From a virus, in IMG/VR virus record IMGVR_UViG_3300032431_000006, positions 1-64,000 of that record: 64,000 nucleotides of DNA. One strand, given 5' to 3'. Below, piece after piece: positions 3,007 to 63,702 of this stretch (within the stretch, counting starts at the first letter, position 1; each line of letters begins with the position of its first letter). The notes under the pieces were generated by a model. That model did not search any database, was not told where the DNA came from, and worked only from the letters and a program-made list of their open reading frames with translations. The position numbers were made by a program, and so were the translations under genes.

Positions 3007-3369
3007 ATGATTAGTTTAACTAATTTCGCAAGCCCTGAGCTAACTAAAGCTATTAACGAATTTGAGGAATGCAACGGCTCGATCGCCCGTATTTCTCGGT
3101 TTATTAATCTGTTTGGGCTTTGGGTAGAGGATTGTCTGATTAATCCTGACTATTTTATCGCGGCTGCTGTCGCCAATCCAAACAAACCATTTACTCCGAC
3201 AGATAGGGCTGAGGTTGTATACACTTTATTCTCGCAGGGTAATGTCACATCAAAATTACAAAGTGAGATCGATAAGTTTGAAGCTCGGTATCACACCATA
3301 GAAGACGGGGATGAGCTTGATAATTTGCTGAGTGCTTTGATACTTGAGATCGTCCGCAACGAAAACTAA
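3007..3369 (+). CDS. hypothetical protein (opposite-strand insert in the tail module)
   Basis: 120 aa from ATG 3007, preceded by GGAG; own terminator 3380-3410; the longer track ORF from 2908 overlaps the minus-strand gene. Confidence 0.6.
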   Translation: MISLTNFASPELTKAINEFEECNGSIARISRFINLFGLWVEDCLINPDYFIAAAVANPNKPFTPTDRAEVVYTLFSQGNVTSKLQSEIDKFEARYHTIEDGDELDNLLSALILEIVRNEN

Positions 3370-3379
3370 AATGCAATTT

Positions 3380-3410
3380 AAAACCCGATCGCGCGATCGG
3401 GTTTTGTTTC
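3380..3410 (+). terminator. rho-independent terminator
   Basis: AAACCCGATCGCGCGATCGGGTTTTGTTT. Confidence 0.8.
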
Positions 3411-3413
3411 ATT

Positions 3414-3430
3414 ATTCCCAGTGTTGGGAC
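3414..3430. repeat. hairpin motif copy 3
   Basis: attcccagtgttgggac; between terminator 3380-3410 and the tube gene stop. Confidence 0.85.
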
Positions 3431-3435
3431 TAGCA

Positions 3436-3927
3436 TTAACCGTACACTAATTCAACTCCTATTGTGTCTGACGACCCGGTTGGGAGTCTCCAAACCACAA
3501 CACCATTCTCTGTGCGCCAAGCATCGGTCACTTGTAATTTAATAGTGCCATCATCAGCCTTATCCGGGCTAACAGTACGCCCTGGTCTGCTAACATAACC
3601 TGAGTAGAACTCTCCATCGCTAGTCGCTACGGTAGGTGATGTCATATCTACATTTAATACCATCAGAGTAACAATCAACTTTGTATTAAATGCTTTTTCA
3701 ACAAACTTTAAAAAAGTAGGATTCCTTTTGTGATCCTTTAGTGACATGGTTAATTCTGCCGCTTGAATAGATCGAGGTTCTGGTTTTGTAAAGTCAGTCC
3801 CGACCACCATATCTGTGTCGTAATTTCTAGTAAATTCTGGTATTTCAATTGTCTTCACTTCACCGTTAACCAGAATCACTCCATTGTCATCAACAAACGC
3901 AACTTTGAGCATAAATTTAATCCACAA
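3436..3927 (-). CDS. putative tail tube protein
   Basis: 163 aa; start overlaps the sheath gene stop by 11 nt; size and position after the sheath-sized gene fit a tube protein; no motif recognised. Confidence 0.5.
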   Translation of the reverse strand: MWIKFMLKVAFVDDNGVILVNGEVKTIEIPEFTRNYDTDMVVGTDFTKPEPRSIQAAELTMSLKDHKRNPTFLKFVEKAFNTKLIVTLMVLNVDMTSPTVATSDGEFYSGYVSRPGRTVSPDKADDGTIKLQVTDAWRTENGVVVWRLPTGSSDTIGVELVYG

Positions 3928-5134
3928 ATATCGTTATTTCTGCAATGCGATCGCCCTGGTTATCACCTTCTAGCATAACATCATAAACAAGACTTCGCGC
4001 TGCTGTATCCGATTTTTCGACATTGAAATTAACGACGCTATAAGGTAATAGAGAGGCATCCGGTTCACGGTTTAAAGCGATCCGGATCGCTTGAGCAATG
4101 CCCTCTATATGCACTAAATCGAATGGTTTCTGTTGCCAGTTATAGGCAACTCTGTTAGCTAAAAATTGAGCTTTTGCTTTCAGTCTGGCAATATTAAACG
4201 GCAAGCCATTTGTCATAATAGAGGTCATGATCCGATCGCTTCCCCACGTTACGCCTTTAGCCTGTAATAGTGCCGAATCTGCAAGAGTTAGGGCAACAGC
4301 GGACTCTTTTAGTGTCTCGCCGTCTGGACTCTCCCAGTAATCTAATAATGCCACGGCTGCGACAAAATGAACGCCCGCACTCTCACCACCGCGATCGCTA
4401 GTGCGGATAGGGAATACCGCAGCGGCGTTAGCAGAATTGAGTAATGGGATCGCGGCAGTAGCACTTACGCCCGGCTGAGTGTACACCGCGATCGCGCTTA
4501 ATGCGATCGCCTTCTGATTCAAAGCAGAGGCAATAGGAACCGTAATTTCAACGCCCGCGGTAACAATCATGGTCGGGATCTGTCCGTCAACGGCTGCTAC
4601 CAAACCGATCGCAGCAACTAGATCGATTGTGTCATAGTTTGCGACTGAGTAGGTAACACGAACAGTTCCAAGCGCCGGAATTGTACTCGCAGCCGTGCGG
4701 GTTATTAGCCCTGTAAGCGGGGCGATCGTGTAATGTGTAGGGGATACATAGGTTATATCCTCTCCCACGTTAGTTACGATTATAGGCGCGACTATATTAG
4801 GGTGATCTAGCTTGATTGTTTGAAGAGCATTGAATGTGTAGCTTTTAGCTGCTACCGCTGCTACCGCGACCGACGGCGTGGCATTAATTGCGATAATAGG
4901 TACTTGGACATACTTTAAAATCGTCTCGATCGCGTCAACTAACCCGTAATCCTTAAGACCTTTACCTGACGCGGTAGATAATGACAAGCGCTCCCCGTAC
5001 TTCGCGATCGCCTCAGTTAGAGATTTAATCAAAGTCGGGTTGCCGTCACCCTTTGCAGCGTTTCCCACGACTGCAATAATATCCCACGGGGATCTTGGTC
5101 TTCTAATGCCTTGCTCTATTAAAATGCTAGTCAT
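3917..5134 (-). CDS. putative contractile tail sheath protein
   Basis: 405 aa; ATGA-coupled to the upstream gene; followed by a tube-sized gene and the tape measure. Confidence 0.55.
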   Translation of the reverse strand: MTSILIEQGIRRPRSPWDIIAVVGNAAKGDGNPTLIKSLTEAIAKYGERLSLSTASGKGLKDYGLVDAIETILKYVQVPIIAINATPSVAVAAVAAKSYTFNALQTIKLDHPNIVAPIIVTNVGEDITYVSPTHYTIAPLTGLITRTAASTIPALGTVRVTYSVANYDTIDLVAAIGLVAAVDGQIPTMIVTAGVEITVPIASALNQKAIALSAIAVYTQPGVSATAAIPLLNSANAAAVFPIRTSDRGGESAGVHFVAAVALLDYWESPDGETLKESAVALTLADSALLQAKGVTWGSDRIMTSIMTNGLPFNIARLKAKAQFLANRVAYNWQQKPFDLVHIEGIAQAIRIALNREPDASLLPYSVVNFNVEKSDTAARSLVYDVMLEGDNQGDRIAEITIFVD

Positions 5135-19141: not shown

Positions 19142-19993
19142 ATGGCTATCATACCACACAATTTCAATGGCAAGGCGATCGGGCAAACATCTTCAGAGAC
19201 CGTGCTTAACGGCGTTAAAATCCCCAAAGGGTATGTCAATCTTAGTCAGATGTGCAAAGCAGGTGGCAAGAAGTTAAACGACTACTTAACGAAAGATAAG
19301 AAGCGCTTATCTTATTTTCACGCTGTCTTGAGAATTTTAGAGGCTGGAACCTATAGCCCGTCAGATGCGACTATACTCGCTTCTGACAACCATGCGGGTT
19401 GTAGCGATTGCCTAGCTTTTGGAATCACATCAGGGTTACTTATCAATCCGGGTAATGCCATCGGAGGTAAATCGGATTTATACGGACATCCACAAATCGC
19501 GATCTCGGTAGCAAGTTGGATTAGCTCGGAGTTTGAAGCGTGGGCGGGTTACACACTGCTATTAGTCCTCAGTGGGGAATTTAAGGCTCTTACCGATGAA
19601 GCTAAACAGGCAGAAAAGGAGCTACAGATAAGATGGGAAAAGATCCGATCGGCAACAATATTTACCCGCCGCGAACTTACCGACTCAATTAAAGCTTGGT
19701 ACGATCGCCCCGACACCCAGACGAATCTACCACTAGGAAAAATAATTGCCCAATGCACCAATCAACTCTATCTAGCCATGTGGGGAGTTACCGCAGCGCA
19801 AATCCGATCGCACTTCAATCTAACCAAAGATTCCCAATTGACCCGCGATTACCTCTCGGAACGCGCTTTAGACAAGCTAAAACTCCGTGAAGACTACGTG
19901 ATTGAGTTTATCGACTTTGAGGGTGCTATTCCCCACGAAAACGCCGTGCAGATGGCAAACATTGTCCGCTGCCGCGTTCACTTCACAGATTAA
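19142..19993 (+). CDS. KilA-N domain protein (paralog family B)
   Basis: N-terminus GYVNLSQMCKAGGKKLNDYL is KilA-N-like; C-terminus WYDRP...CTNQLYLAMWGVTAAQIRSHF is shared with 32607..33392; conserved leader upstream. Confidence 0.8.
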   Translation: MAIIPHNFNGKAIGQTSSETVLNGVKIPKGYVNLSQMCKAGGKKLNDYLTKDKKRLSYFHAVLRILEAGTYSPSDATILASDNHAGCSDCLAFGITSGLLINPGNAIGGKSDLYGHPQIAISVASWISSEFEAWAGYTLLLVLSGEFKALTDEAKQAEKELQIRWEKIRSATIFTRRELTDSIKAWYDRPDTQTNLPLGKIIAQCTNQLYLAMWGVTAAQIRSHFNLTKDSQLTRDYLSERALDKLKLREDYVIEFIDFEGAIPHENAVQMANIVRCRVHFTD

Positions 19994-20009
19994 TCCCACT
20001 GTTGGGAAT
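19988..20009. repeat. hairpin motif copy 13
   Basis: gattaatcccactgttgggaat; contains stop TAA 19991-19993. Confidence 0.85.
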
Positions 20010-20015
20010 ATTTGC

Positions 20016-20043
20016 AACCCGTCGCACTCAGACGGGTTTTTTG
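20016..20043 (+). terminator. rho-independent terminator
   Basis: ACCCGTCgcactcaGACGGGTTTTTTG. Confidence 0.8.
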
Positions 20044-20078
20044 TGGGGAATTGTTAGCTCAGACGGGCGATCGGGAAA

Positions 20079-20194
20079 GTCATACGAAAAAGTCATAATT
20101 TATATATATATATGCCTTCTATGACAAGCTTAAACCTATATACAGTAACGATTGCAGACATTGTAAAAACAGAGTGTCAAATTACCCCAATATT
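20079..20194 (+). repeat. composite element E4 (long tail variant, divergent head)
   Basis: GTCATACgaaaaaGTCATAAtttatatatatatatgccTTCTATGAC, plus a tail with an insert related to E3. Confidence 0.8.
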
Positions 20195-20414
20195 CCCATA
20201 ATCTGACTTCGGAGGCAGAGCAAATTAAGGGCGATCGGGTCATTCTCTGGCTGCATTTTAATAGGTTGCTACAGAAACAACCGGACTCTACCATTAACAG
20301 TTGGATGATATTTTTTATCAAAAATATTTTAAACATTTTGGCTTTTTGACTTTTGTTTTGTTTTGCTTTAATGTAGCTTCAGTATGTTAAATTTTCCTAG
20401 TTTTAAAAAATGCT

Positions 20415-20453
20415 CAGAGGGGGGGGTCTAGGGGGGTATGCTAGGGTAGCACT
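20415..20453 (+). repeat. G-run box 1
   Basis: TCAGAGGGGGGGGTCTAGGGGGGTATGCTAGGGTAGCAC. Confidence 0.8.
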
Positions 20454-20526
20454 TTTCAAGCTAAATCTAAAATGATTTATGATTCTAGCTTCAAAGTTTT
20501 ATAATCAAGATTAATTTTGATAAATC

Positions 20527-20568
20527 AAGAAAACTTTAAGAAACTTTAAGAAACTTTAAGAAACTTGC
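20527..20568 (+). repeat. 10-bp tandem repeat AAGAAACTTT, about 4 units
   Basis: Read directly, within an AT-rich segment. Confidence 0.85.
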
Positions 20569-20659
20569 AAAACTTCATTAAACAAAGTTTTGCTTTAAAA
20601 CTTTATTCATCATAATATTCAAACTTGCTTCTACTTTGAATTTGATATTAGGAAATAAT

Positions 20660-20697
20660 CTGAGGGGGGGGCTAGTGAGGGGGGGCTGGGTGCTACT
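20660..20697 (+). repeat. G-run box 2
   Basis: TCTGAGGGGGGGGCTAGTGAGGGGGGGCTGGGTGCTAC; paralogous to box 1. Confidence 0.8.
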
Positions 20698-20751
20698 ACT
20701 CTAAGTAAACTCAAAGCTAATTTTTTCTTGATGATAATATCTTGAAGCTTT

Positions 20752-20838
20752 CTTGATTTTAGATTTTAGATTTTAGATTTTAGATTTTAGATTTTAGATT
20801 TTAGATTTTAGATTTTGGATTTTGGATTTTGGATGTTC
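20752..20838 (+). repeat. 7-bp tandem repeat AGATTTT (about 8 units), then GGATTTT (3 units)
   Basis: Read directly. Confidence 0.9.
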
Positions 20839-20880
20839 AGATGTTTAAAAGTTTAAGAGTTTCTAGTTTCGATCGCCTCC

Positions 20881-21065
20881 CATACCTTACCTTACCTTAG
20901 CCATACCATACCTTACCTTACCTTAGCCATGCCATGCCATACCTTAGCCATGCCATACCTTAGCCATGCCATACCTTAGCCATGCCATACCTTAGCCATG
21001 CCATACCTTAGCCATGCCATACCTTAGCCATGCCATACCTTAGCCATGCCATGCCTTAGCCATGC
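20881..21065 (+). repeat. tandem repeat built from CCTTA/CCATA/CCATG; core 16-bp unit CCTTAGCCATGCCATA, about 7 units
   Basis: Read directly. Confidence 0.9.
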
Positions 21066-21173
21066 CTAGCGCGCGTGTAGTCTCGATCGCGCGCTATAGC
21101 CTACCTTCTAACCTTAGCTACCTTAGCCATGCCTAGCGCGCGTGTAGTCTCGATCGCGCGCTATAACCTACCT
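21054..21173 (+). repeat. two direct copies of about 53 bp, each with a GC-rich hairpin
   Basis: CCTTAGCCATGCCTAGCGCGCGtgtagtctcgatCGCGCGCTATA.CCTACCT at 21054-21107 and 21121-21173; the second abuts the stop of 21172..22128. Confidence 0.85.
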
Positions 21174-22826: not shown

Positions 22827-22845
22827 ATTCCCAGTGTTGGGATTA
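22827..22845. repeat. hairpin motif copy 15
   Basis: attcccagtgttgggatta; contains the minus-strand stop 22843-22845. Confidence 0.9.
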
Positions 22846-23808
22846 TTTGGGCATAGTCTTAATCAGAGAGGAATAGAACAGCGGCGGGACGCTATACCCA
22901 AACCCAGCCCCTACAAACCGCGCTGTGTTTGGGTATCGGAAGGTATCGGGAAAGCCGGACAGCCGTGCGTGAGCTTCTAAATTGAAATTAAGCCAATCCC
23001 CGCTAGCAGGGAAATAGAGGCATGATATTTTCGATCGCCCGTTTTCAGCACCGTCTCTAAATTTGGATTTAATCAAGGTCGGTATCAATTCCGATCGCCC
23101 GCGCGCTTTGGGTTTCTCGCCGCAAGTCACCCGCTCTACATAGAGAGGGCTTTTAAGCTGATCCGGATTGCGCGCTTGCCAATCGAGTACAGCTTGCCTT
23201 TGCCGCGGTGTAGGGACGATCGGGGCAAACGCGGGTATCAAATCTTCGACTACCTCATACCAGTCACGGCTAGCAGGCTGTATGGGTGACTCCCAGTTGC
23301 CATGCAGCGCAGCCGTGACGATAAGCCGGACGCGCGACTGTCCAAACGGTGATCCGACATTTAAGACTGTGCTATTGACTGTGTAGCCAAGCGCGATCGC
23401 CCGCGCTTTCATATAATCAAACTCAGGTGATTTTCTATACATAGGAACCTGTTCTAGTGTGAAGCACCGAGGCATCCCGATCTCGATCGCGTCCATAGAT
23501 GCCCGGATCATGGCTTGATTCTCATTTCTAGGCGCGCCCGACGTGGCTGCTGAGTAGTCTGCACAAACAGGGGATATGTGCGCTATTTGGGCATTGCGAG
23601 GCAAACCAGGGCATCCCCAATCCGCAAATTCTTGCACGGTCTCTAACCGGGTTCCTTGCCAGCCGTTCATCAGATGAATTTTAATAAAAGCCTCGGAGAG
23701 TTTGGGGTCGCGGGGATCGAACTCGACACCCAACACAGGTTTAATACCCGCTAAGGTCATCCCACATTTAACGCCGCCTATGCCTGAAAACAAATCCCAT
23801 CCAATCAT
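22843..23808 (-). CDS. DNA (cytosine-5) methyltransferase
   Basis: DLFSGIGG (motif I), ISPVCADYS (PC motif), LEQVP (ENV-like), GAGFGYSVPP (motif X-like); AAGGAA before ATG 23808. Confidence 0.85.
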   Translation of the reverse strand: MIGWDLFSGIGGVKCGMTLAGIKPVLGVEFDPRDPKLSEAFIKIHLMNGWQGTRLETVQEFADWGCPGLPRNAQIAHISPVCADYSAATSGAPRNENQAMIRASMDAIEIGMPRCFTLEQVPMYRKSPEFDYMKARAIALGYTVNSTVLNVGSPFGQSRVRLIVTAALHGNWESPIQPASRDWYEVVEDLIPAFAPIVPTPRQRQAVLDWQARNPDQLKSPLYVERVTCGEKPKARGRSELIPTLIKSKFRDGAENGRSKISCLYFPASGDWLNFNLEAHARLSGFPDTFRYPNTARFVGAGFGYSVPPLFYSSLIKTMPK

Positions 23809-23824
23809 TGCGATTCCTTTAAAA

Positions 23825-23856
23825 AAAAACAAAGGCGATCGAGCGATCGCCTATCA
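23825..23856 (-). terminator. rho-independent terminator
   Basis: Minus strand reads AGGCGATCGctcGATCGCCTTTGTTTTTTTTT. Confidence 0.75.
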
Positions 23857-23943: not shown

Positions 23944-23978
23944 GATCGCTTCGATTTAATCGCCTCGATTTAATCGCG

Positions 23979-24513: not shown

Positions 24514-24536
24514 AATTCCCAACACTGGGATTAATC
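24514..24536. repeat. hairpin motif copy 17
   Basis: aattcccaacactgggattaatc; contains the minus-strand stop 24531-24533. Confidence 0.9.
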
Positions 24537-25256
24537 TGTCAAGTTGTCAAAGTAGGCTTCGATCGCCAAATCCAAGTCCTCATTAACTAAGTAGACATTT
24601 ATTTTCCGAATAGTTCCATTGCAGAGTCGGTCTTCTCTCTTTTTGTTTAGGTCTAGTTTGGCGATCGCCATGCCCAAACTGACTCGCTTCTCTACTACCA
24701 GTCCTACGGGATAACCTAACTGCTCAGCACGTTCAGCAACACCACACCAACCCTCGCTATTTTCAGCTTTGAGCGCGGGTTGACCGACTCCTAGCATATC
24801 TAGCGCTAAATCCTGCAAACCCTGCTGAAATCGCGGGTTAGTTAGGTCTATCTTGAGGCGATCGAGCGCGGTTATCAGATTATTTAACCGGATGTCAGAG
24901 GGCGGTAGTTGGGGTTGCTGCGGGGCGATCGAGACAGTCCCGGTCGTCATCAGGGCTTTAATTTGCTGCGATACCCAAACTCGGAATTTGACATTGCACC
25001 ACGCCGCAAAGTCGATCGCCACTTCCTCAATTGCCCACGTCCCCTGACTAGCGGGGATGCCGCCTTGCACGGTTTCCGTTACGGGAAATCCCGTAACGCT
25101 CTCCATCTCTGCTAAAAACTCAACAGTAGCGCCAAGCCTGGTATAGTCATTAACTTTTTTTCCCGTCGCCTTAGCCATATCAGAAAGCGAAACCCACACC
25201 CGATCGCCCCGCTTCTCAAACCGGATCTTCTTACCACCAAAATCTAAATCTGTCAT
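24531..25256 (-). CDS. KilA-N domain protein (paralog family C)
   Basis: DFGGKKIRFEKRGDRVWVSLSDMAKATGKKVNDY...GTWAIEEVAIDFAAWCNVKFRVWV is KilA-N-like; stop TAA lies in the hairpin motif. Confidence 0.8.
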   Translation of the reverse strand: MTDLDFGGKKIRFEKRGDRVWVSLSDMAKATGKKVNDYTRLGATVEFLAEMESVTGFPVTETVQGGIPASQGTWAIEEVAIDFAAWCNVKFRVWVSQQIKALMTTGTVSIAPQQPQLPPSDIRLNNLITALDRLKIDLTNPRFQQGLQDLALDMLGVGQPALKAENSEGWCGVAERAEQLGYPVGLVVEKRVSLGMAIAKLDLNKKREDRLCNGTIRKINVYLVNEDLDLAIEAYFDNLTD

Positions 25257-31452: not shown

Positions 31453-31490
31453 TAGCATGAGACAAAACCCGGACGTTCGCTTCGATTTAA

Positions 31491-31565
31491 TCGCCTCGAC
31501 TCGATCGCCTCGACTCGATCGCCCCGACTCGATCGCCTCGACTCGATCGCCCCGACTCGATCGCC
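31491..31565 (+). repeat. 14-15 bp tandem repeat TCGCCYCGACTCGA, about 5 units
   Basis: Read directly, immediately upstream of E5. Confidence 0.85.
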
Positions 31566-31658: not shown

Positions 31659-32123
31659 CTATCTCCCCTTTTTTTTGTAGCGCGCGGGTAGTTTTTGAGT
31701 TTTGGGAATAATGCCGGTGATACTTGACCAACTAATGCCACAGAGAATGCTGGAAATAGCGGCTCTAGAGACTTGATAGCGATCGGCAAGCTCGATCGCA
31801 CTAGATCCTGAGTCTGCCAAAGTCACAATGTCTCTAACTTGTGTCTCGGTTAGCTTAGCTTTTGGGTGATTCTCTCCCAGGTTGCAAGATTTAACGGTGC
31901 GATCGGGGGCGATCCTCTCCGTTGGCGCAGCCCCCGTAGGGGCGGGCTGCGCTAACGGGCCCGTGGCTAACTCAGAGATAAACCGAGTAAAGCTCACGTT
32001 GCAGCGGCGACAAACGAGCCGATAAAATCCATCTCCAGCGGTAGGGTAACGGCCCTTTCTGACTACCCGATCGCTAATCAAACATTGTGGGCAATTAACC
32101 GGGTATTTTGGAATGCCTGCCAT
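31659..32123 (-). CDS. zinc-ribbon plus helix-turn-helix DNA-binding protein
   Basis: N-terminal CPQC...CRRC; C-terminal NHPKAKLTETQVRDI...LADRYQVSRAAISSIL block, also present in 53898..54116; lies between two composite-element copies. Confidence 0.6.
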   Translation of the reverse strand: MAGIPKYPVNCPQCLISDRVVRKGRYPTAGDGFYRLVCRRCNVSFTRFISELATGPLAQPAPTGAAPTERIAPDRTVKSCNLGENHPKAKLTETQVRDIVTLADSGSSAIELADRYQVSRAAISSILCGISWSSITGIIPKTQKLPARYKKKGR

Positions 32124-40354: not shown

Positions 40355-41197
40355 ATGCAGACAAAGTATATCAAAAGTTTTCTCAGTTGGCAAGGTGGGA
40401 AACTAAGACTTTTGCCCCAATTATTGCCGCTGTTTCCAGAAAAGATTAAGGCATATTATGAGCCGTTTTTAGGTGGCGGGGCGGTCGCGCTTAATATTGC
40501 CCCACGGTGTAAGGATCTGATCCTTAGTGATAAAAATGATTGTTTAATCAACGCTTGGCAGTGTATGAGGGAAGATCCGATCGGGCTAGGCGAATTATTG
40601 ATATGGCACAAAGCGCAACACGATCGAGGGCATTACCGAAAAAAGGATTTTTATTCGGGTCATTACTACAGTATGCGGGATGACTACAATGCAGACCGAG
40701 GTACGGGCCCGATCGCGGCCGCGCGTTTTATCTATTTAATCAAGGCTTGTTTCAATGGTACATGGCGATCGAACCGCTCAGGCAAAATAAATACGCCGTT
40801 AGGTACTCGATTTTATTTGCCTGAGCTAGACGGTCACGCCGCAAAACTCGCAAGCGCTGCTATTATTGCGACTGACTACACTATAATTAAGGGTGCGGGG
40901 CGGGGCGATGTTGTTTATCTCGATCCGCCTTATTATGCCGATCGGGAAATTGCCAGCGATTACGGGGTCGGCGGGTTTAGTGAAAGCGATCGAGTTGCTA
41001 TGGTTGCACTTGCAGCTAAAATCGGCAAGCGCGGGGCGATCGTCATAGGTTCCGACCTTGATACACCGATTACCCGCGAACTGTACGGCGGGGCGGGTTT
41101 TGTTTATGATACCTTCCCCTATACTTACTGTGTGGGAGGAACCGATAAGAGCCGATTCATAAGCTCAGAGTTAATATACCACAACATCCCATACTAA
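40355..41197 (+). CDS. Dam-class (D12) DNA N6-adenine methyltransferase
   Basis: SWQGGKLRLLPQLLP, YYEPFLGGGAV (FxGxG) and VVYLDPPY (DPPY) blocks. Confidence 0.9.
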   Translation: MQTKYIKSFLSWQGGKLRLLPQLLPLFPEKIKAYYEPFLGGGAVALNIAPRCKDLILSDKNDCLINAWQCMREDPIGLGELLIWHKAQHDRGHYRKKDFYSGHYYSMRDDYNADRGTGPIAAARFIYLIKACFNGTWRSNRSGKINTPLGTRFYLPELDGHAAKLASAAIIATDYTIIKGAGRGDVVYLDPPYYADREIASDYGVGGFSESDRVAMVALAAKIGKRGAIVIGSDLDTPITRELYGGAGFVYDTFPYTYCVGGTDKSRFISSELIYHNIPY

Positions 41198-44571: not shown

Positions 44572-44582
44572 ATAATCCCCTA

Positions 44583-44604
44583 TTTCCCAACACTGGGATT
44601 AACC
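44583..44604. repeat. hairpin motif copy 29
   Basis: tttcccaacactgggattaacc. Confidence 0.9.
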
Positions 44605-44632
44605 GTCGCTACTCAAAAGCGGCGGTTTTTTG
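44602..44632 (+). terminator. rho-independent terminator
   Basis: CCGTCGCTactcaaaAGCGGCGGTTTTTTG. Confidence 0.75.
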
Positions 44633-44648
44633 TGGCGGGCGATCGCGC

Positions 44649-44679
44649 TTTGGGGGTGTCAATTTATTGACACCCCAAA
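44649..44679. repeat. G/C-clamped hairpin 1
   Basis: TTTGGGGG-TGTCAATTTATTGACA-CCCCAAA. Confidence 0.85.
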
Positions 44680-44703
44680 CGGGCGATCGGTAGCAAGTTT
44701 TGG

Positions 44704-44727
44704 GGTCTATGCAGATCCGCATAGACC
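44704..44727. repeat. GATC-loop hairpin H1
   Basis: GGTCTATGC-agatcc-GCATAGACC. Confidence 0.8.
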
Positions 44728-44750
44728 AAACATCAGGTCGCCCGATCGCG

Positions 44751-44788
44751 CTTAAAGTAAATACTGGGATCGCAGTATTTACTTTAAG
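44751..44788. repeat. GATC-loop hairpin H2
   Basis: CTTAAAGTAAATACTG-ggatcg-CAGTATTTACTTTAAG; 16-bp stem. Confidence 0.85.
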
Positions 44789-44807
44789 CTGATGCCGATC
44801 GCCCGCC

Positions 44808-44926
44808 GTCACACAATGGGGTAAAAAGTCATAGGACATTCACTGTATTTTATAATATATAGCGTCCTGTGACTAACCCAAACCTATACACTGTAACGAT
44901 TTTACCCCAATATCAAAACAGGTCGG
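44808..44926 (+). repeat. composite element E7
   Basis: GTCACACAATGGGGTAAAAAGTCATAGGACA...TATAAT...CCTGTGAC plus the conserved tail. Confidence 0.9.
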
Positions 44927-44936
44927 GCGATCGGGC

Positions 44937-44973
44937 TTTGGGGGGGGTGTGAATAAATGCACACCCCCCAAAA
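44937..44973. repeat. G/C-clamped hairpin 2
   Basis: TTTGGGGGGGG-TGTGAATAAATGCACA-CCCCCCAAAA. Confidence 0.85.
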
Positions 44974-44995
44974 CGGGCGATCGGGCTTTGGGCTA

Positions 44996-45145
44996 AGTCA
45001 AGTTTTCTTGACTCAGGTCGGTCTTGAAGCTGCCGTGCATTTATTCACATCAGGTCGCGCCGATCGCCCGCCGCGACCTGATGTCAATTTTCTGACATCA
45101 GGTCGCGCTTGAAGCTGGTACAAGAAAACTTGTATCAGGTCGCGC
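44996..45145 (+). repeat. array of short palindromes, each followed by ATCAGGTCGCG
   Basis: AGTCAAGTTTTCTTGACTCAGGTCGG / GTGCATTTATTCACATCAGGTCGCG / TGTCAATTTTCTGACATCAGGTCGCG / GTACAAGAAAACTTGTATCAGGTCGCG; TTGAAGCTG linkers. Confidence 0.8.
45048..45107. repeat. three-arm alternative hairpin
   Basis: ACATCAGGTCGCG (45048-45060), CGCGACCTGATGT (45072-45084), ACATCAGGTCGCG (45094-45106); the middle arm can pair with either neighbour. Confidence 0.8.
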
Positions 45146-45152
45146 TTAAGAC

Positions 45153-45174
45153 CATTATGCAGATTCCCATAATG
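45153..45174. repeat. hairpin related to H5
   Basis: CATTATG-cagattcc-CATAATG. Confidence 0.65.
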
Positions 45175-45300
45175 CTGTCTAACGCGCCGATCGCCCGCTA
45201 AAAAAGCCACCACTCGAACGCATTGATGTTTAAGGTTCTCAGTCATTTTGTGGGCATTTTACCACCACCTAAGAAAGCCGTCACCCGCCGATCGCCCGCC

Positions 45301-45419
45301 GTCAGATAATGGGGTAAAAAGTCATAGGACAAACGATATATTTTATAATATATACCCTTCTGTGACTAACCTAAACCTATACGCTGTAACGGTTTTACCC
45401 CAATTTCAAAACAGGTCGG
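45301..45419 (+). repeat. composite element E8
   Basis: GTCAGATAATGGGGTAAAAAGTCATAGGACA...TATAAT...TTCTGTGAC plus the conserved tail. Confidence 0.9.
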
Positions 45420-45432
45420 GCGATCGGGCTTT

Positions 45433-45462
45433 GGGGGGGTACAAGTTTTCTTGTACCCCCCC
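45433..45462. repeat. G/C-clamped hairpin 3
   Basis: GGGGGGG-TACAAGTTTTCTTGTA-CCCCCCC; perfect 13-bp stem. Confidence 0.9.
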
Positions 45463-45483
45463 GTCAATGGGCGATCGCCCACT

Positions 45484-45533
45484 AAAAAATACTTTCTAAA
45501 CCGTCCGGTTTTGTCGATATGTTATGGTATAAT
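45484..45533 (+). promoter_or_regulatory. promoter (TGgTATAAT) with an upstream box
   Basis: AAAAAATACTTTCTAAACCGTCCGGTTTTGTCGATATGTTATGGTATAAT. Confidence 0.65.
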
Positions 45534-45559
45534 ATAGAGACAGTTTAGCGAGTGACATT

Positions 45560-45916
45560 ATGACTGGTATCACGGGTTTGGATTTTGGTGGTAAGAAGAT
45601 CCGGTTTGAGAAGCGGGGCGATCGAGTGTGGGTTAGCTTGACCGATATGGCTAAGGCGACGGGTAAGTTGGTCGGCAACTGGAACCAGCTAGACGGTACG
45701 ATTAAGTACCTGAGCAAGCTTGAAGCCGTTATTGGAATCCCAATAACGGAAATAAATCAAGGCGGCATCCCTGAGAAACAAGGAACATGGGCAATTAAGC
45801 AGGTCGCAATCAAATCGGTTTTCCGACACCCCCCCCAAATCCCGATCGCGCTCAAAGATTCTTTTAAACCGTCCGGTTTTGTCGCCGTACTATGGTATAA
45901 TATAGAGATAGTTTAG
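45560..45916 (+). CDS. truncated KilA-N paralog (family C), possibly a pseudogene
   Basis: First 85 aa or so parallel 45928..46626; the frame then runs into the next promoter (AVLWYNIEIV translates TATGGTATAATATAGAG). Confidence 0.45.
   Translation: MTGITGLDFGGKKIRFEKRGDRVWVSLTDMAKATGKLVGNWNQLDGTIKYLSKLEAVIGIPITEINQGGIPEKQGTWAIKQVAIKSVFRHPPQIPIALKDSFKPSGFVAVLWYNIEIV
45857..45901 (+). promoter_or_regulatory. promoter (TGgTATAAT) with an upstream box
   Basis: GATTCTTTTAAACCGTCCGGTTTTGTCGCCGTACTATGGTATAAT. Confidence 0.65.
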
Positions 45917-45927
45917 CTAGTGACATC

Positions 45928-46626
45928 ATGACAGATTTAGATTTTGGTGGTAAGAAGATCCGGTTTGAGAAGCGGGGCGATCGGGTTTGGGTTTCGCTTT
46001 CTGATATGGCGGCGGCAACAGGCAAACAAGTTTACGGATACACTCGCAATAAAGAGACAAAAGAATTTCTGGCTGAGATGGAGAGCGTTACGCAAATTTG
46101 CGTAACGGAAACCGTGCAAGGCGGCATTCCTGCTAGTCAGGGAACATGGGCGATCGAGGAAGTGGCGATCGACTTCGCGGCGTGGTGCAATGTCAAATTC
46201 CGAGTTTGGGTATCTCAACAAATTAAAACCCTGATGATGACGACCGGGACTGTCACGATCGCCCCGCCCGATCGCCCTTGTTGGATCGAGGACTCTGCTA
46301 ATCCGTGGGTAGCGTTTTTTGACAAGGATTTTTGCGATCGGGTGTTTGGCTGGTACGGGGCACAGTTTTATTGGCAATTCGTGTACAAGGTATTAACGCC
46401 GGAAGAGGCTGCTAAAGTCAATCGGCTTAATCCGCCAGTTGCGGGTGTAAGGGCCCAGCGAATCCACCAATACCTAACACCGGAAGCAAAGACGCGCTTA
46501 ACTCCCTATATTGGGGTGCTAGTTGGCATGGTGTACGGCGCGCGATGCCGTGAGGACTTCCGGCTAGGCTATGCGGACAAGTTTGGAGGTAACGACCAAA
46601 AACGGATACCCGGATTTGATAAGTAA
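45928..46626 (+). CDS. KilA-N domain protein (paralog family C)
   Basis: N-terminal 100 aa nearly identical to 24531..25256. Confidence 0.8.
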   Translation: MTDLDFGGKKIRFEKRGDRVWVSLSDMAAATGKQVYGYTRNKETKEFLAEMESVTQICVTETVQGGIPASQGTWAIEEVAIDFAAWCNVKFRVWVSQQIKTLMMTTGTVTIAPPDRPCWIEDSANPWVAFFDKDFCDRVFGWYGAQFYWQFVYKVLTPEEAAKVNRLNPPVAGVRAQRIHQYLTPEAKTRLTPYIGVLVGMVYGARCREDFRLGYADKFGGNDQKRIPGFDK

Positions 46627-47292: not shown

Positions 47293-47772
47293 ATGCCGAT
47301 CGCACTGACTGAATATACCCAATATCACCCAACACGCTTAACCCGTCAATCCGATAATCCTGTAATGTCTGGCACTTATACCTTAGAGGCGTTAACTGCA
47401 CTATACGGCGGGGATAATGAATATGAAACTTTGCGGGTTGCAGCCATGCAAGGTCAAGCCTTTTTTAAAAAGGCTGACGGCTTTACTGCGTTTAACCCAA
47501 TACCAGGGGAAACCGCCGACCTGCCTTTAGACGTTAATCCTACTACTGAGACTGAGGTTGATGCGATCGAGGTTGATGCGATCGAGGCTGAGGCTGAGAC
47601 TGAGGTTGAGACTGAGGTTGATGCGATCGAGGCTGAGGCGATCGAGGCTGAGGCTGAGGCTGACACCGATGAGGCGATCGAGGCTGAGGCTGAGGCTGAC
47701 ACCGATGAGGCGATCGAGGCTGACACCGAGGCTGACACTGATGATACCGATGAAGGTAACGATATTTTCTAA
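47293..47772 (+). CDS. highly acidic repeat protein
   Basis: 159 aa; C-terminal 80 aa are Asp/Glu/Ala/Thr/Ile repeats (EAEAEADTDEAIEA...); terminator downstream. Confidence 0.65.
   Translation: MPIALTEYTQYHPTRLTRQSDNPVMSGTYTLEALTALYGGDNEYETLRVAAMQGQAFFKKADGFTAFNPIPGETADLPLDVNPTTETEVDAIEVDAIEAEAETEVETEVDAIEAEAIEAEAEADTDEAIEAEAEADTDEAIEADTEADTDDTDEGNDIF
47536..47752 (+). repeat. coding tandem repeats (GAGGCTGAGGCT / GATGCGATCGAGG units)
   Basis: Encodes the acidic repeat region; explains the multiple overlapping track ORFs. Confidence 0.85.
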
Positions 47773-55861: not shown

Positions 55862-55885
55862 GCATTATTGTGATCCCAATAATGC
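55862..55885. repeat. GATC-loop hairpin H3
   Basis: GCATTATTG-tgatcc-CAATAATGC. Confidence 0.8.
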
Positions 55886-55886
55886 C

Positions 55887-55910
55887 CAATTATCGGGATC
55901 ACGATAATTG
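55887..55910. repeat. GATC-loop hairpin H4
   Basis: CAATTATCG-ggatca-CGATAATTG. Confidence 0.8.
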
Positions 55911-55917
55911 CCGATCG

Positions 55918-55943
55918 CCCGTTATGGGAATCCTCATAACGGG
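55918..55943. repeat. hairpin H5
   Basis: CCCGTTATG-ggaatcct-CATAACGGG. Confidence 0.75.
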
Positions 55944-55953
55944 CGATCGGGTA

Positions 55954-56047: not shown

Positions 56048-56719
56048 ATGAGTATTATAGCACGGAAAGCAACAGTCGCGATCGTCAAAATGGGAATCTT
56101 GGAAATAGAAGGTCTCAGGTTTGATGACAATGGGGAGTATGCGGTAGCGGTTCCACAAATCTGTAGTCTATTTTCAATCGACACAAACCAGGCTGCAAGA
56201 AGCCTCAAAAGTATACTGGGTAAAGGTTTGTCAATCGACAAAGCGCGTACTACATTACACTCGAACCCTGTCAATTGTATTACACTTCTAGACTTCGATC
56301 GGTTGATAACCGAACTGACAATAAAGCAAAACCCAACCGCGATCGGGTTCAGTCGAGCATTAAACGGTTTGGCATTAACTCAGTTATTCTCAGACGCTTT
56401 TGGGATCAAGTTTGAGAAGGAAGATCGCCAGCAATATTTGATTAAGCGTCAGACACATAAAGAGCAATTTCATCCCAAGTTCACGGCATGGCTAAAGAAG
56501 GATGCAGGTGGCGATAGTAGCGCCGTCAAATGGGGTTTAAAGGTGGATGAACTCAAACTAGCTGCTGGGGTTCCATTGACCTTTATTGATGAATACAACC
56601 CGGCTGAGTATGCGACGATCGACAAACTGAATCAAGCTTATGCCTCATACCATTCGCTACGTTTGGCGGGTATTTCTCATGAAGGGGCGATCGGGGTTTT
56701 GAAATTGCAAAATAATTAA
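56048..56719 (+). CDS. paralog family A protein
   Basis: ILEIEGLRFDDNGEY and FSDAFGIKFEKEDRQQ blocks; canonical TTGACA-16-TATAAT promoter and conserved leader. Confidence 0.75.
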   Translation: MSIIARKATVAIVKMGILEIEGLRFDDNGEYAVAVPQICSLFSIDTNQAARSLKSILGKGLSIDKARTTLHSNPVNCITLLDFDRLITELTIKQNPTAIGFSRALNGLALTQLFSDAFGIKFEKEDRQQYLIKRQTHKEQFHPKFTAWLKKDAGGDSSAVKWGLKVDELKLAAGVPLTFIDEYNPAEYATIDKLNQAYASYHSLRLAGISHEGAIGVLKLQNN

Positions 56720-59542: not shown

Positions 59543-60271
59543 ATGACCTTAGCATTTTTTCAATTCCAAAGCAATCAAGTCCGGGTTGTTGCGATCAACG
59601 GCGAACCCTGGTTTGTGGCTAAAGATTTGTGTGCAGTGTTGGGAATCAGTAATTCCCGTGATGCTGTTGAACGTTTGGATGAGGATGAGAAGGGTGTCGT
59701 TACTACCGACACCCTTGGTGGAAAACAAGAGCTAGTAACGGTTTCAGAGTCTGGGATGTACTCGCTGGTGTTGACTTCCCGTAAACCGCAGGCTAAAGTT
59801 TTTAAACGCTGGATTACTCACGATGTTGTACCCACTATCCGCCAGACTGGGAAATATGAAATCGAGCCGATCGCTCCTACCGAACACCAACTACCAGCTA
59901 CCTATATAGAAGCCTTGAAAGCACTTGTAATAGCGGAGGAAGAGAAAGAGGCATTGATACAAGCAAACGCGCTTCTAAGTGCAACTAACGAATGCTTGCA
60001 AGAGGATATTGAGCTATTTACCGAAGTAGTGGATGAGCTTTTTAACTACTCTTCAATTATTCGGATTGCCAAGTTTAACGAAGTTAATGAAAAAATCTTC
60101 AATTGGTACAGCTTGAAAGCCGCTAGCAAAATGTTAAAAGTAGAGGTAAAAACAGCACCTTGCCCACGCTACGGAAAGAAAAACCTTTACAGCCACGATG
60201 CTTGGCGACTAGCCTATCCCGATGCTAAATTGCCTGAGACTACTACACTAACGATCGCCCGCAAAGATTAA
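59543..60271 (+). CDS. Bro-N domain antirepressor-like protein
   Basis: FQFQSNQVRVVAINGEPWFVAKDLCAVLGI...MYSLVLTSRKPQAKVFKRWITHDVVPTIRQTGKY is a typical Bro-N domain. Confidence 0.85.
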   Translation: MTLAFFQFQSNQVRVVAINGEPWFVAKDLCAVLGISNSRDAVERLDEDEKGVVTTDTLGGKQELVTVSESGMYSLVLTSRKPQAKVFKRWITHDVVPTIRQTGKYEIEPIAPTEHQLPATYIEALKALVIAEEEKEALIQANALLSATNECLQEDIELFTEVVDELFNYSSIIRIAKFNEVNEKIFNWYSLKAASKMLKVEVKTAPCPRYGKKNLYSHDAWRLAYPDAKLPETTTLTIARKD

Positions 60272-63627: not shown

Positions 63628-63651
63628 CCGTTACTGGGATCGCAGTAACGG
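63628..63651. repeat. GATC-loop hairpin H6
   Basis: CCGTTACTG-ggatcg-CAGTAACGG. Confidence 0.8.
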
Positions 63652-63680
63652 GATCTAACGCGGGCGATCGCCTTTAAAAC

Positions 63681-63702
63681 CATTACTCGGATCTGAGTAA
63701 TG
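63681..63702. repeat. GATC-loop hairpin H7
   Basis: CATTACTC-ggatct-GAGTAATG. Confidence 0.8.

Follow-up and report, generated by a model that had tools for sequence, protein, structure and literature searches.

A Mosaic of Small Palindromic Cassettes at a Hypervariable Intergenic Junction of an Uncultivated Cyanophage

The stretch at positions 44572-45559 of the window (the whole 64-kb stretch of DNA analysed, originating from an uncultivated tailed cyanophage of ~66 kb) is a gene-free region of ~1 kb densely pieced together from small palindromic cassettes that can form hairpins, and it is flanked by the terminator of a DUF932 gene on the 5' side and by the promoter of a KilA-N gene on the 3' side. 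Since related phages are empty or differently filled at the same spot, the region is best regarded as a dispensable, recombination-prone spacer and not as a replication origin, a packaging site or an RNA switch. Sequence comparison makes it probable that this non-coding spacer is hypervariable, lies at the left edge of a hyperplastic region and is put together from CGATCG-delimited palindromic cassettes. Any function would be at most accessory, for instance that of a recombination hotspot or of a spacer/insulator between two transcription units, and no origin, packaging, RNA-family or transposase signals were found at the region. What is new is best read as a variant of the BIME, SDR and PeSL kinds of element.

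Setting of the Junction and Phage Context

The abundance of HIP1 (54 copies in the window vs. 1.2 expected) and of CGATCG (360 copies in 64 kb, i.e., 5.6 per kb), together with the encoded terminase, portal, capsid and tail genes, identifies the window as cyanophage DNA. With the terminase, the identity to GenBank phages does not exceed 48%, so that no cultured relative is helpful. The sequence of 44572-45559, with a GC content of 0.47, agrees with its description in the earlier note. It recurs unchanged in two public assemblies made independently of each other (ENA ERZ27246954 and JGI 3300007517) and, therefore, does not represent an assembly artefact; a further source sample is SRR5468153.

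At the 5' edge, the gene-end palindrome TCCCAACACTGGGA (44585-44598) is one of 39 TCCCA-N4-TGGGA copies in the window (vs. 0.03 expected), which are mostly located 1-80 nt past the stop codons. It is followed by the intrinsic terminator of the DUF932 gene (44601-44631; + strand; a stem with T6), which is kept in all relatives and whose part 44601-44627 is the sole terminator-like site with a T-tract downstream of a gene, and by the HIP1-type anchor GGGCGATCGCG (44638-44648), the divergence point of all six alleles. Further CGATCG cores of the region lie at 44684, 44743, 44796, 44928, 44978, 45061, 45188, 45289, 45421 and 45472. The unique 90-nt spacer at 45199-45288, preceded by the promoter-upstream motif CGATCGCCCGCTAAAAAA, has no relative anywhere. 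At the 3' edge, the promoter P1 (AAACCGTCCGGTTTTGTCG...TGGTATAAT, 45498-45533, + strand), with a putative extended -10 recognised by eye, has a copy at 45866-45901 ahead of the full-length KilA-N gene. The truncated duplicate of the KilA-N gene (45560-45916, + strand, 118 aa) enters with its 3' end a half A module, situated at the breakpoint of the copy (45825-45851, GACACCCCCCCCAAATCC plus CGATCG), and then the promoter P2.

Folding Potential and Anatomy of the Modules

Folded as DNA, the region reaches -236.8 kcal/mol vs. -127.4 +/- 5.7 kcal/mol for the shuffled sequences (z = -19.2), and as RNA it departs from the shuffles with z = -16.2, the folding check advised in the earlier note having thus placed the region well beyond chance. 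Hairpins with perfect stems of at least 8 bp were counted over the whole 64-kb window, and 6 of the 47 fall in the region (1.5% of the window), with ~0.7 expected. The three open reading frames of the region, previously suspected to be spurious, match no Pfam or PHROGs family and cross repeats that are missing in the relatives, in keeping with that suspicion, and the coding reading was rejected. A known RNA family was likewise rejected, as the region has no Rfam match at the gathering score and none at E < 1; the tRNA and tmRNA search found none. The hairpins of the region have no U-tracts and, therefore, the palindromes are not intrinsic terminators.

The modules of type A are the G/C-clamped hairpins A1 (44649-44680; TTTGGGGG, core TGTCAATTTATTGACA, CCCCAAAC), A2 (44937-44974; TTTG8, core TGTGAATAAATGCACA, C6AAAAC) and A3 (45430-45468; TTTG7, core TACAAGTTTTCTTGTA, C7GTCAAT). 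All three hairpins that had been described as sharing one clamp scaffold are present at their sites, but the third ends with CCCCCCCGTCAAT, without the 3' AAA. The tandem array, noticed before at 44996-45145, spans 44987-45145 and consists of four D units of exactly 37 nt each (D1 44987-45023, D2 45024-45060, D3 45072-45108, D4 45109-45145); the first unit departs from the earlier description in having TCAGGTCGGTC. In each unit, a palindromic core is set between a left arm, either TTGAAGCTG or TTTGGGCTAA, and the right arm TCAGGTCGCGC, and the 11-nt CGATCGCCCGC separates the units 2 and 3; ATCAGGTCGCG occurs in four exact copies in the window, all inside this region, and CGATCG is missing from the tandem D units. 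A CRISPR array or solitary repeat unit was considered and rejected, as the 37-nt units are composed of a ~20-nt scaffold and related palindromic cores of 14-17 nt and match no CRISPR-DR family.

The reuse of the inserts in two scaffolds, to which the earlier note had drawn attention, is exact: 45117-45134 and 45440-45457 are 100% complementary over 18 nt, and 44948-44962 and 45035-45049 over 15 nt. The modularity of scaffold and insert extends to the relatives, where L004 carries a hybrid of the left G-clamp with the right CAGGTCGCGC. The A and D scaffolds have in common a limited set of cores that resemble one another (GTCAAG-N4-CTTGAC, GTACAAG-N4-CTTGTAC, GTCAATTTATTGAC and GTGCATTTATTCAC), which are confined to this junction both in the window and in the relatives. 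The A and D modules were not found in other IMG/VR phages, in PLSDB plasmids (the cyanobacterial ones included) or in GenBank phages; the IMG/VR scan with CGATCGGGCTTTGGGG returned a known relative and chance matches only, the scan with GTACAAGWWWWCTTGTAC chance matches only, and ATCAGGTCGCGCTTRA was too unspecific as a query. The region itself had no match by megablast/blastn among the GenBank phages and the PLSDB plasmids, those of Nostocaceae included.

The unit D3 bears a copy of the right arm in inverted orientation, so that two alternative, mutually exclusive stems arise, at 45047-45084 (-26.2 kcal/mol) and at 45072-45107 (-28.7 kcal/mol). With their near-equal energies, these stems might let the three-arm segment at 45047-45107 serve as an attenuator or RNA switch for the read-through into the KilA-N genes. 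The exclusive stems noted earlier do exist, but their reading as a switch is extremely improbable and was rejected: three D arms of the same kind, one of them inverted, are enough to produce the arrangement, which is present in the window allele only (0 of the 5 others), neither stem is followed by a U-tract, and the segment, to which no Rfam family corresponds at E < 1, lies ~450 nt upstream of the promoter that it would have to control.

The modules B, C and E are members of one dispersed palindrome family, designated the E family. Module B (44698-44742) has the hairpin GGTCTATGCAGATCCGCATAGACC, clamped by TTTTGG..CCAAAC, and then ATCAGGTCGCC, with the core identical at 17 of 18 positions to the KilA-N intragenic palindrome of L139. 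Module C (44750-44789) is a palindrome with a 17-bp stem and a GGATCG centre, its 14-nt centre ACTGGGATCGCAGT being common with the palindrome at 63628, while module E (45146-45187) consists of CATTATGCAGATTCCCATAATG and the tail CTGTCTAACGCGC and has the same sequence in L140. An integron attC array was rejected, since there is no integrase and the GTCTAAC of module E stands at the 3' end instead of the 5' end.

Two copies of a composite element, a lineage-specific repeat of ~130 nt, complete the region: E7 (44795-44933, + strand), with the central hairpin GTCATAGGA..TCCTGTGAC around TATTTTATAATATATA, and E8 (45288-45426, + strand), the block E8+A3 being a duplicate of E7+A2 with 91% identity over a 153-nt stretch. 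All the 20 copies of the composite have the same orientation. Composites sit upstream of + strand accessory genes; CGATCG flanks them on both sides, the inverted repeats are internal only, and neither terminal inverted repeats nor target-site duplications are evident. Cyanobacterial MITEs, such as Nezha of ~130-170 bp (PMC3184786), resemble the composite in being multi-copy, non-coding, intergenic, of the same size and provided with internal inverted repeats; however, the composite has no evident terminal inverted repeats or target-site duplication, is co-oriented and has no cognate transposase encoded. Its origin as a host MITE was rejected because the only match in a set of 185,579 species genomes lies on a contig of a related phage that had been placed in the bin of a cyanobacterial MAG, and a structured RNA was rejected because the covariation term is +0.25 and any double change was seen in only 2 of 27 pairs.

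Allelic Series in Related Phages

Six allelic states were found at the junction, all beginning at one HIP1-type site, GGGCGATCG, after the conserved terminator. The allele of L005 and L141 is empty, with a 153-nt spacer; L138 has three HIP sites and a composite; L139 has D, a composite and D'; L140 has D, E, a composite and A; L004 has the A/D hybrid, D, a composite and E; and the window allele, with ten small modules and two composites, has the largest set of the six, the sets of four others being smaller and different from it. The composite is thereby kept at the junction in 5 of the 6 alleles and small palindromes in four, so some benefit of their retention may be conceived. The gene content downstream of the junction is different in every relative. 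The search for related loci with KilA-N, by a single protein and an alignment, found only L005.

L004 and L005 differ by a clean exchange. In the 7122 nt ahead of the GGGCGATCG site they have an identity of 99.4%, past which 227 nt of repeats in L004 replace 769 nt with a promoter and a KilA-N gene in L005, and then the identity resumes at 97.6%; HIP1-type repeats delimit the exchanged stretch. Divergence of the alleles sets in 3 nt past CGATCG, and most module boundaries fall at CGATCG, itself present here at 5.6 per kb. The comparison with relatives, one of the checks proposed in the earlier note, found the region missing in L005 and different in the others, an outcome that the note itself had counted against its functional proposals.

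The spacer is composed of cassettes that are mostly delimited by HIP1-type CGATCG sites and that include the long imperfect, locus-specific A and D palindromes, the three members of the dispersed family (B, C, E) and the two composites of ~130 nt. Recombination between the short CGATCG-containing repeats may lead to the gain, loss and swap of cassettes, including whole promoter-gene cassettes, and tandem duplication may have produced the four 37-nt D units and the E7+A2/E8+A3 duplicate. Fold-back or template-switch copying would make and perfect the inverted arms and flip the loops, of which D3, the cores in both orientations and the hybrid scaffolds may be examples. Quasipalindrome template-switch mutagenesis and minute hairpin-loop inversions are established mutational mechanisms; they would explain the cores in both orientations, the symmetric differences between cores and the perfected arms of D3, but they are mechanisms rather than an element family, and here they are proposed. 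The core differences are largely symmetric (GTCAAG/CTTGAC vs. GTACAAG/CTTGTAC vs. GTCAAT/ATTGAC), and the modules are near-perfect palindromes, which might be due to selective maintenance of a hairpin or of a site bound by a dimer instead of a mutational mechanism.

An empty site together with five different fillings of a palindrome mosaic is a rare allelic series within a virus, and it illustrates the way in which cyanophages can exchange genes as modules by means of palindromes and short repeats of the HIP1 type. For 30 years HIP1 has remained puzzling; to our knowledge, site-specific recombination is the one activity of HIP1 that has experimental support. The junction, with cassette swaps ending exactly at CGATCG, is a usable natural test case for HIP1.

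Origin and Packaging Signals

A region with many closely spaced hairpins and repeats but no supported open reading frames could be expected to be a replication origin, a packaging (pac/cos) site or an integration site, and the first two had been put forward in the earlier note. Such a role is very improbable and was rejected, because L005 lacks the region, the other relatives have non-homologous sequence in its place, and the cumulative GC skew, calculated as had been suggested, has no inflection at 44-46 kb. The minimum of the skew lies at ~31-32 kb beside the DUF3854 primase/helicase gene and an iteron array (14 nt x 5.4), the origin-like iteron repeats being at 31490-31565, and an AT-rich 1.2-kb tandem-repeat region is located at 20-21 kb, with origin-like repeats at 20.3-21.1 kb. 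Judging by these features, the sites at 31.5 kb and at 20-21 kb are better origin candidates than 44572-45559. The terminase genes lie at 15.6-17.5 kb, ~28 kb away, which together with the absence in L005 disfavours the packaging site. The transposase, integrase and RAYT (Y1_Tnp) genes were not found past the Pfam cut-off among the 64 ORFs, with a weak sub-threshold InsA/HTH_7 match at 31659-32123. The earlier designation as a recombination site holds in a broad sense only, since the related phages differ there by whole cassettes. For hairpin-dense, ORF-free kilobases of phage genomes, comparative evidence is needed before an origin or a packaging site is called.

Comparison with Known Palindromic Elements and Mobility

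The opinion that the reused inserts belong to no known element class is overstated, as in its architecture the region resembles BIMEs, SDRs and PeSLs. Like the enterobacterial BIMEs with their REP units, the region is an extragenic mosaic of short imperfect palindromes in both orientations with few conserved linker motifs, placed after a terminator between transcription units, tandem-expandable and strain-variable. However, BIME/REP elements have hundreds of dispersed copies and a RAYT, whereas the A and D modules occupy one locus of a phage genome that encodes no RAYT and have their boundaries at CGATCG (HIP1-type) sites. In terms of the REP/BIME-REPIN definition, palindromic units in both orientations, linkers and the extragenic position are all present, while no Y1_Tnp was detected in the 64 ORFs and the modules lack the GTAG head.

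The SDR1-8 repeats of Nostocaceae, as far as their descriptions go, are similar in being very small hairpin-capable repeats in HIP1-rich cyanobacterial DNA. They are reportedly nested or in tandem and contained in larger repeats. By the same descriptions, the SDRs are 21-27 nt long and genome-wide, in contrast to the locus-specific modules of 32-45 nt here; no dispersal of the A and D cores and arms was seen, their occurrence within the 64 kb and the relatives being limited to this junction. The PeSL cassettes, the promoter-early stem-loops of T4-type phages (PMC2839356, PMC4122927), are short conserved non-coding motifs flanking non-essential genes in hyperplastic regions, and recombination between them results in insertions, deletions and replacements in close relatives, which is exactly the pattern of L004 vs. 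L005. Here, too, the element flanks variable genes and the replacements end in the motif. However, PeSL is one promoter-plus-terminator unit of demonstrated function, whereas here the CGATCG-type sites and the 130-nt element appear to recombine, the palindromes are not terminators, and a unit of a sigma-70 promoter plus a stem-loop terminator was not recognised, the hairpins being devoid of U-tracts.

The small modules might also be tiny non-autonomous mobile elements of the SDR or REPIN type, moved in trans by an enzyme of the host or of the phage, with the region as a HIP1 insertion hotspot of nested and tandem copies. The coexistence of empty and filled sites, the position of the boundaries and the nested palindromes (e.g., the E-type within the double-HIP palindrome at 55911-55950) would agree with such mobility, and a precedent is given by SDR5, which is described as inserting precisely within HIP1 in Nostocaceae (Elhai et al. 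2008, Genome Res 18:1484, cited in PMC4390886, PMC5861425). This mobility is, nevertheless, rather unlikely, as the A and D cores and scaffolds are confined to this junction, both in the 64-kb genome and in the relatives, and are absent from the IMG/VR, PLSDB and GenBank phage sets searched above, and no transposase or RAYT is encoded. Flanking by CGATCG is weak evidence at its density here, and the strict 37-nt tandem period suits duplication over independent insertions.

Dispersed Palindromes and the KilA-N Family

The E family has the consensus half-sites CCRTTAYnGGGA and TCCCnRTAAYGG, which are conserved and covary in their positions, with 128 of 150 Watson-Crick pairs vs. 79 +/- 6 when the halves are permuted. 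Its palindromes cluster at 55862-55950, including the double-HIP palindrome with the E-type one at its centre, and at 63628-63702, in both cases upstream of + strand genes. The family conservation with covariation inside genes argues that at least the B, C and E palindromes are functional somewhere.

On this basis, the palindromes could be functional cis elements, i.e., KilA-N/Bro operator-like sites or transcript-stabilising/processing RNA hairpins, the array being upstream of the KilA-N promoter. The covarying half-sites and the two clusters point in this direction, as do the palindromes conserved inside the KilA-N genes of distant homologues and the match of KilA-N to PHROG 129, 'transcriptional regulator'. 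For the junction such a role is quite unlikely, because close relatives with the same promoter have from 0 to 10 sites there, the A and D modules are found at no other promoter, and the hairpins without U-tracts are not intrinsic terminators. It would be similarly improbable that the palindromes are cis-acting sites of a phage system around an expanded KilA-N/Bro family, used for cassette exchange or regulation at CGATCG-bounded junctions. If it were so, the KilA-N/Bro proteins would recognise the E family either in the form of RNA hairpins or at the DNA level, where it would act as a cruciform or a dimer site. Through the intragenic site, the protein sequence of each paralogue would be coupled to its own target sequence, and the A and D modules would have arisen from such sites by local diversification.

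The KilA-N intragenic palindrome could matter more than the spacer itself. KilA-N proteins are encoded at 45928-46626, 24531-25256 and 19142-19993, and their homologues number ~58. An E-family palindrome is also located within the KilA-N genes, near codon 53, its palindromy being preserved there by nonsynonymous changes that compensate one another, and these intragenic palindromes are conserved in distant homologues.

Structure of the palindromic region

The region 44572-45559 is best taken as a mosaic of palindromic cassettes bounded by CGATCG sites, hypervariable and dispensable, at the boundary of a cyanophage hyperplastic region. It is akin to BIME/REP mosaics, cyanobacterial SDRs and phage PeSL-type shuffling cassettes, and is a variant of these, not a new class. 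Its sequence is as the earlier note had read it and is identical in two independent assemblies; a third contig stops at 44650, at the start of the repeats. The gene-end palindrome TCCCAACACTGGGA (44585-44598) and the intrinsic terminator of the DUF932 gene (44601-44631) are followed by the modules A1 (a G/C-clamped hairpin, 44649-44680), B (44698-44742) and C (44750-44789), a copy E7 of the composite element (44795-44933), module A2 (44937-44974), four D units, each exactly 37 nt long (starting at 44987, 45024, 45072 and 45109), module E (45146-45187), a unique 90-nt spacer (45199-45288) for which the searches returned no relative anywhere, the composite copy E8 (45288-45426), module A3 (45430-45468) and an extended -10 promoter (45498-45533), repeated at 45866-45901 before the second KilA-N gene.

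The reported reuse of inserts in two scaffolds is exact, with 100% complementarity over 18 nt and 15 nt. The region has four exact copies of ATCAGGTCGCG, the only ones in the window. Two details differ slightly from the earlier note: A3 is without the 3' AAA, and D1 ends in TCAGGTCGGTC. The alternative stems around 45072-45086 are present and mutually exclusive (-26.2 and -28.7 kcal/mol), and folding is strong against dinucleotide shuffles (z = -19 as DNA, z = -16 as RNA). Of the 47 perfect hairpins in the window, 6 lie in the region, which spans 1.5% of the window length, and the three ORFs that had been doubted are indeed without family support. The pattern of palindromes and repeats is real and non-random.

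Alleles of the junction in related phages

The source virus is an uncultivated tailed cyanophage, the window being 64 kb out of a 66-kb metagenomic contig, with genes for the large terminase, Mu-type portal, capsid protease, major capsid protein, tail and baseplate proteins, a DUF3854 primase/helicase and one helicase, at least four KilA-N genes and one Bro-N gene. Its terminase has at most 48% identity to any GenBank phage terminase, and no nucleotide match to the window was found among GenBank phages or PLSDB plasmids. HIP1 (GCGATCGC) occurs 54 times in the window, vs 1.2 expected, and its core CGATCG 360 times, or 5.6 per kb. HIP1 was linked by Elhai (PMC4390886) to Dam-type N6-adenine and C5 cytosine methyltransferase specificities, both of which are encoded by the phage (the D12, Dam-type, enzyme at 40355-41197 and the C5 enzyme at 22843-23832).

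Five distinct relatives (88-95% amino-acid identity) were found by DUF932 protein search, and all of them keep the terminator and the following anchor ...GGTTTTTTGTG(G/A)CGGGCGATCG, with divergence beginning three bases past its CGATCG. The allele of L005 (= L141) is empty, the anchor passing directly into TCAAAGATTCTTTTAAACCGTCCGG..., the promoter and a KilA-N gene, with an intergenic spacer of 153 nt. L138 has three CGATCG repeats, one composite element and then a different gene; L139 (= L142) has a D module, a composite and a D-like module before the promoter and KilA-N; L140 (D, E, composite, A) and L004 (a hybrid module with a G-clamp left arm and CAGGTCGCGC right arm, then D, composite, E) are without the KilA-N gene. 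The window has the fullest set, with ten small modules and two composites. L004 and L005 are 99.4% identical over 7122 nt upstream of the site, at which 227 nt of repeats in L004 stand against 769 nt of promoter and KilA-N gene in L005, and identity is back at 97.6% beyond it.

Since the region is empty in L005 and differently filled in each relative, it is dispensable; it is rebuilt in a different form in each lineage, and variable gene content begins at its edge. The relatives speak against an essential role, as an origin, a terminus or other, since they show the absence and divergence that the earlier note had named among the signs of decaying repeat debris. An attenuator or switch, suggested from the three-arm topology, fails as well, because the arrangement occurs in none of the other alleles, the hairpins are without U-tracts and the region has no Rfam match. 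The structure read in the earlier note stands, but its functional reading is right only in part, the origin/packaging and RNA-switch functions being rejected.

The cumulative GC skew shows no inflection at 44-46 kb and has its minimum at ~31-32 kb, adjoining the primase/helicase gene and an iteron array at 31490-31565. This array, a 14-nt x 5.4 tandem repeat (ATCGCCTCGACTCG) beside the DUF3854 gene at a gene-orientation switch, with a 2.4-copy relative at 23945-23977, is a better origin candidate than the region. A 1.2-kb AT-rich, ORF-free stretch between convergent genes (19994-21171), rich in tandem repeats (GATTTTA x13, a 16-nt unit x11, AAACTTTAAG x3.6, paired G7-8 runs), could be an origin or packaging site.

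Probable growth of the mosaic

Modules A, C, D and E fold or read as long imperfect palindromes extending towards flanking GC-rich or CGATCG sequence. The cores, i.e., the central palindromes of A and D, are present in both orientations (TTTT and AAAA loops; GTGCATTTATTCAC and its complement) and differ mostly symmetrically. The D units keep a strict 37-nt period, the D right arm recurs in perfect inverted form within D3, E8+A3 duplicates E7+A2 at 91%, and half an A module lies exactly at the truncation of the 118-aa KilA-N copy (45560-45916), at its join to the next promoter. The mosaic probably grows in place by recombination between short repeats that contain CGATCG and are very frequent, by tandem duplication, and by fold-back or template-switch copying; recombination at HIP1 sites has published support, as cited in PMC9239245 and PMC4390886. 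The small modules are unlikely to be dispersed mobile elements, despite the precedent of SDR5 inside HIP1 (cited in PMC4390886), because the four core types and both scaffolds (A, D) are confined to this junction in the window and all related loci examined, with none found in other IMG/VR contigs, PLSDB plasmids or GenBank phages, and because the 64 ORFs gave no transposase, integrase or RAYT, the one InsA/HTH_7 match (31659-32123) being sub-threshold.

Palindromes of the KilA-N genes

Modules B, C and E are not confined to this locus; when centre-aligned, they group with twelve other palindromes under the consensus CCRTTAYnGGGA|TCCCnRTAAYGG. In this set 128 of 150 pairs are Watson-Crick, vs 79 +/- 6 with right halves permuted, the pairing being maintained via covarying positions. 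Five of the set fall within KilA-N genes, all at codon ~53 and each with its own sequence: CGTTACGCAAATTTGCGTAACG (46086-46107, gene 45928-46626, peptide SVTQICVTE), CATTACGCAAATTTGCGTAATG (L005 7356-7377, SITQICVMV), CGTTACGGGATTTCCCGTAACG (25077-25098, gene 24531-25256, SVTGFPVTE), CCGTTATTGGAATCCCAATAACGG (45726-45749, gene 45560-45916) and a 13-bp-stem version in L139 (4026-4057). KilA-N genes of L160 (2657-2694) and L163 (2667-2690) also have a palindrome at this codon. These palindromes are perfect, with stems of 9-17 bp, and their substitutions are compensatory in DNA and nonsynonymous in protein. The palindrome persists in more distant homologues, in one of them with a 17-bp stem over 38 nt of coding sequence. 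The E module of L004 with its tail GGATCTAACG matches the coding sequence that a 'SITGIPVMVSN' KilA-N gene would have, and therefore the E modules are either fragments of KilA-N genes or one element taken up in genic and intergenic settings alike. The intragenic palindromes are a lead reaching beyond the region itself and give a basis for reading such palindromes as cis-acting sites of a KilA-N/Bro system, a distinctly long shot.

Palindromes of different sequence occupy a similar domain position in the KilA-N gene 19142-19993 (19293-19313, codon ~51) and the Bro-N gene 59543-60271 (59690-59716, codon ~50). Three E-family palindromes stand in tandem at 55862-55950, directly upstream of the gene 56048-56719, with the third embedded in the middle of a double-HIP palindrome, CCGATCGCC...GGCGATCGG.

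The composite element and other repeats

The composite element, a ~130-nt lineage-specific repeat distinct from module E, has nine copies in the window (6074, 12383, 18857, 20076, 31558, 44795, 45288, 63491 and 63708) and 20 with those of relatives (L004, L137-L140). All 20 are co-oriented irrespective of the neighbouring gene strand, and each follows a gene end and precedes a + strand promoter, which often belongs to an accessory gene of KilA-N type. They have a conserved central hairpin around TATTTTATAATATATA, with no covariation indicative of structured RNA. A stringent pattern scan over 185,579 species genomes gave a single match, on the contig of a related phage that had been placed in the bin of an uncultured cyanobacterium. 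In its behaviour the element resembles a boundary of cassettes specific to this lineage, and its closest functional parallel is the PeSL elements of T4-type phages (PMC2839356).

The motif TCCCA-N4-TGGGA, mostly TCCCAACACTGGGA or its complement, has 39 sites in the window vs 0.03 expected (e.g., 3416, 13209, 14093, 17646, 22829, 24517, 44585, 47162, 53004, 55332 and 56721), most of them 1-80 nt 3' of stop codons on both strands, with loop orientation independent of gene strand. The motif resembles a site that marks gene boundaries, and mycobacteriophage 'stoperators' are similar to it in number and placement.

In L160, a 63.9-kb contig of a different cyanophage lineage, a 1.4-kb ORF-free stretch (3280-4712) directly after a KilA-N gene contains four copies of its own-lineage ~130-nt repeat and many GTCTGAACG repeats; therefore, repeat-filled spacers beside KilA-N genes may be common in these phages. 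Downstream of the variable region lies a gene for an acidic protein that contains an in-frame tandem repeat of high variability (GAGGCTGAG... or GAAGAATCYGAG...; window 47547-47744, L140 3080-3300, L005 8320-8460); its unit and copy number vary between relatives.
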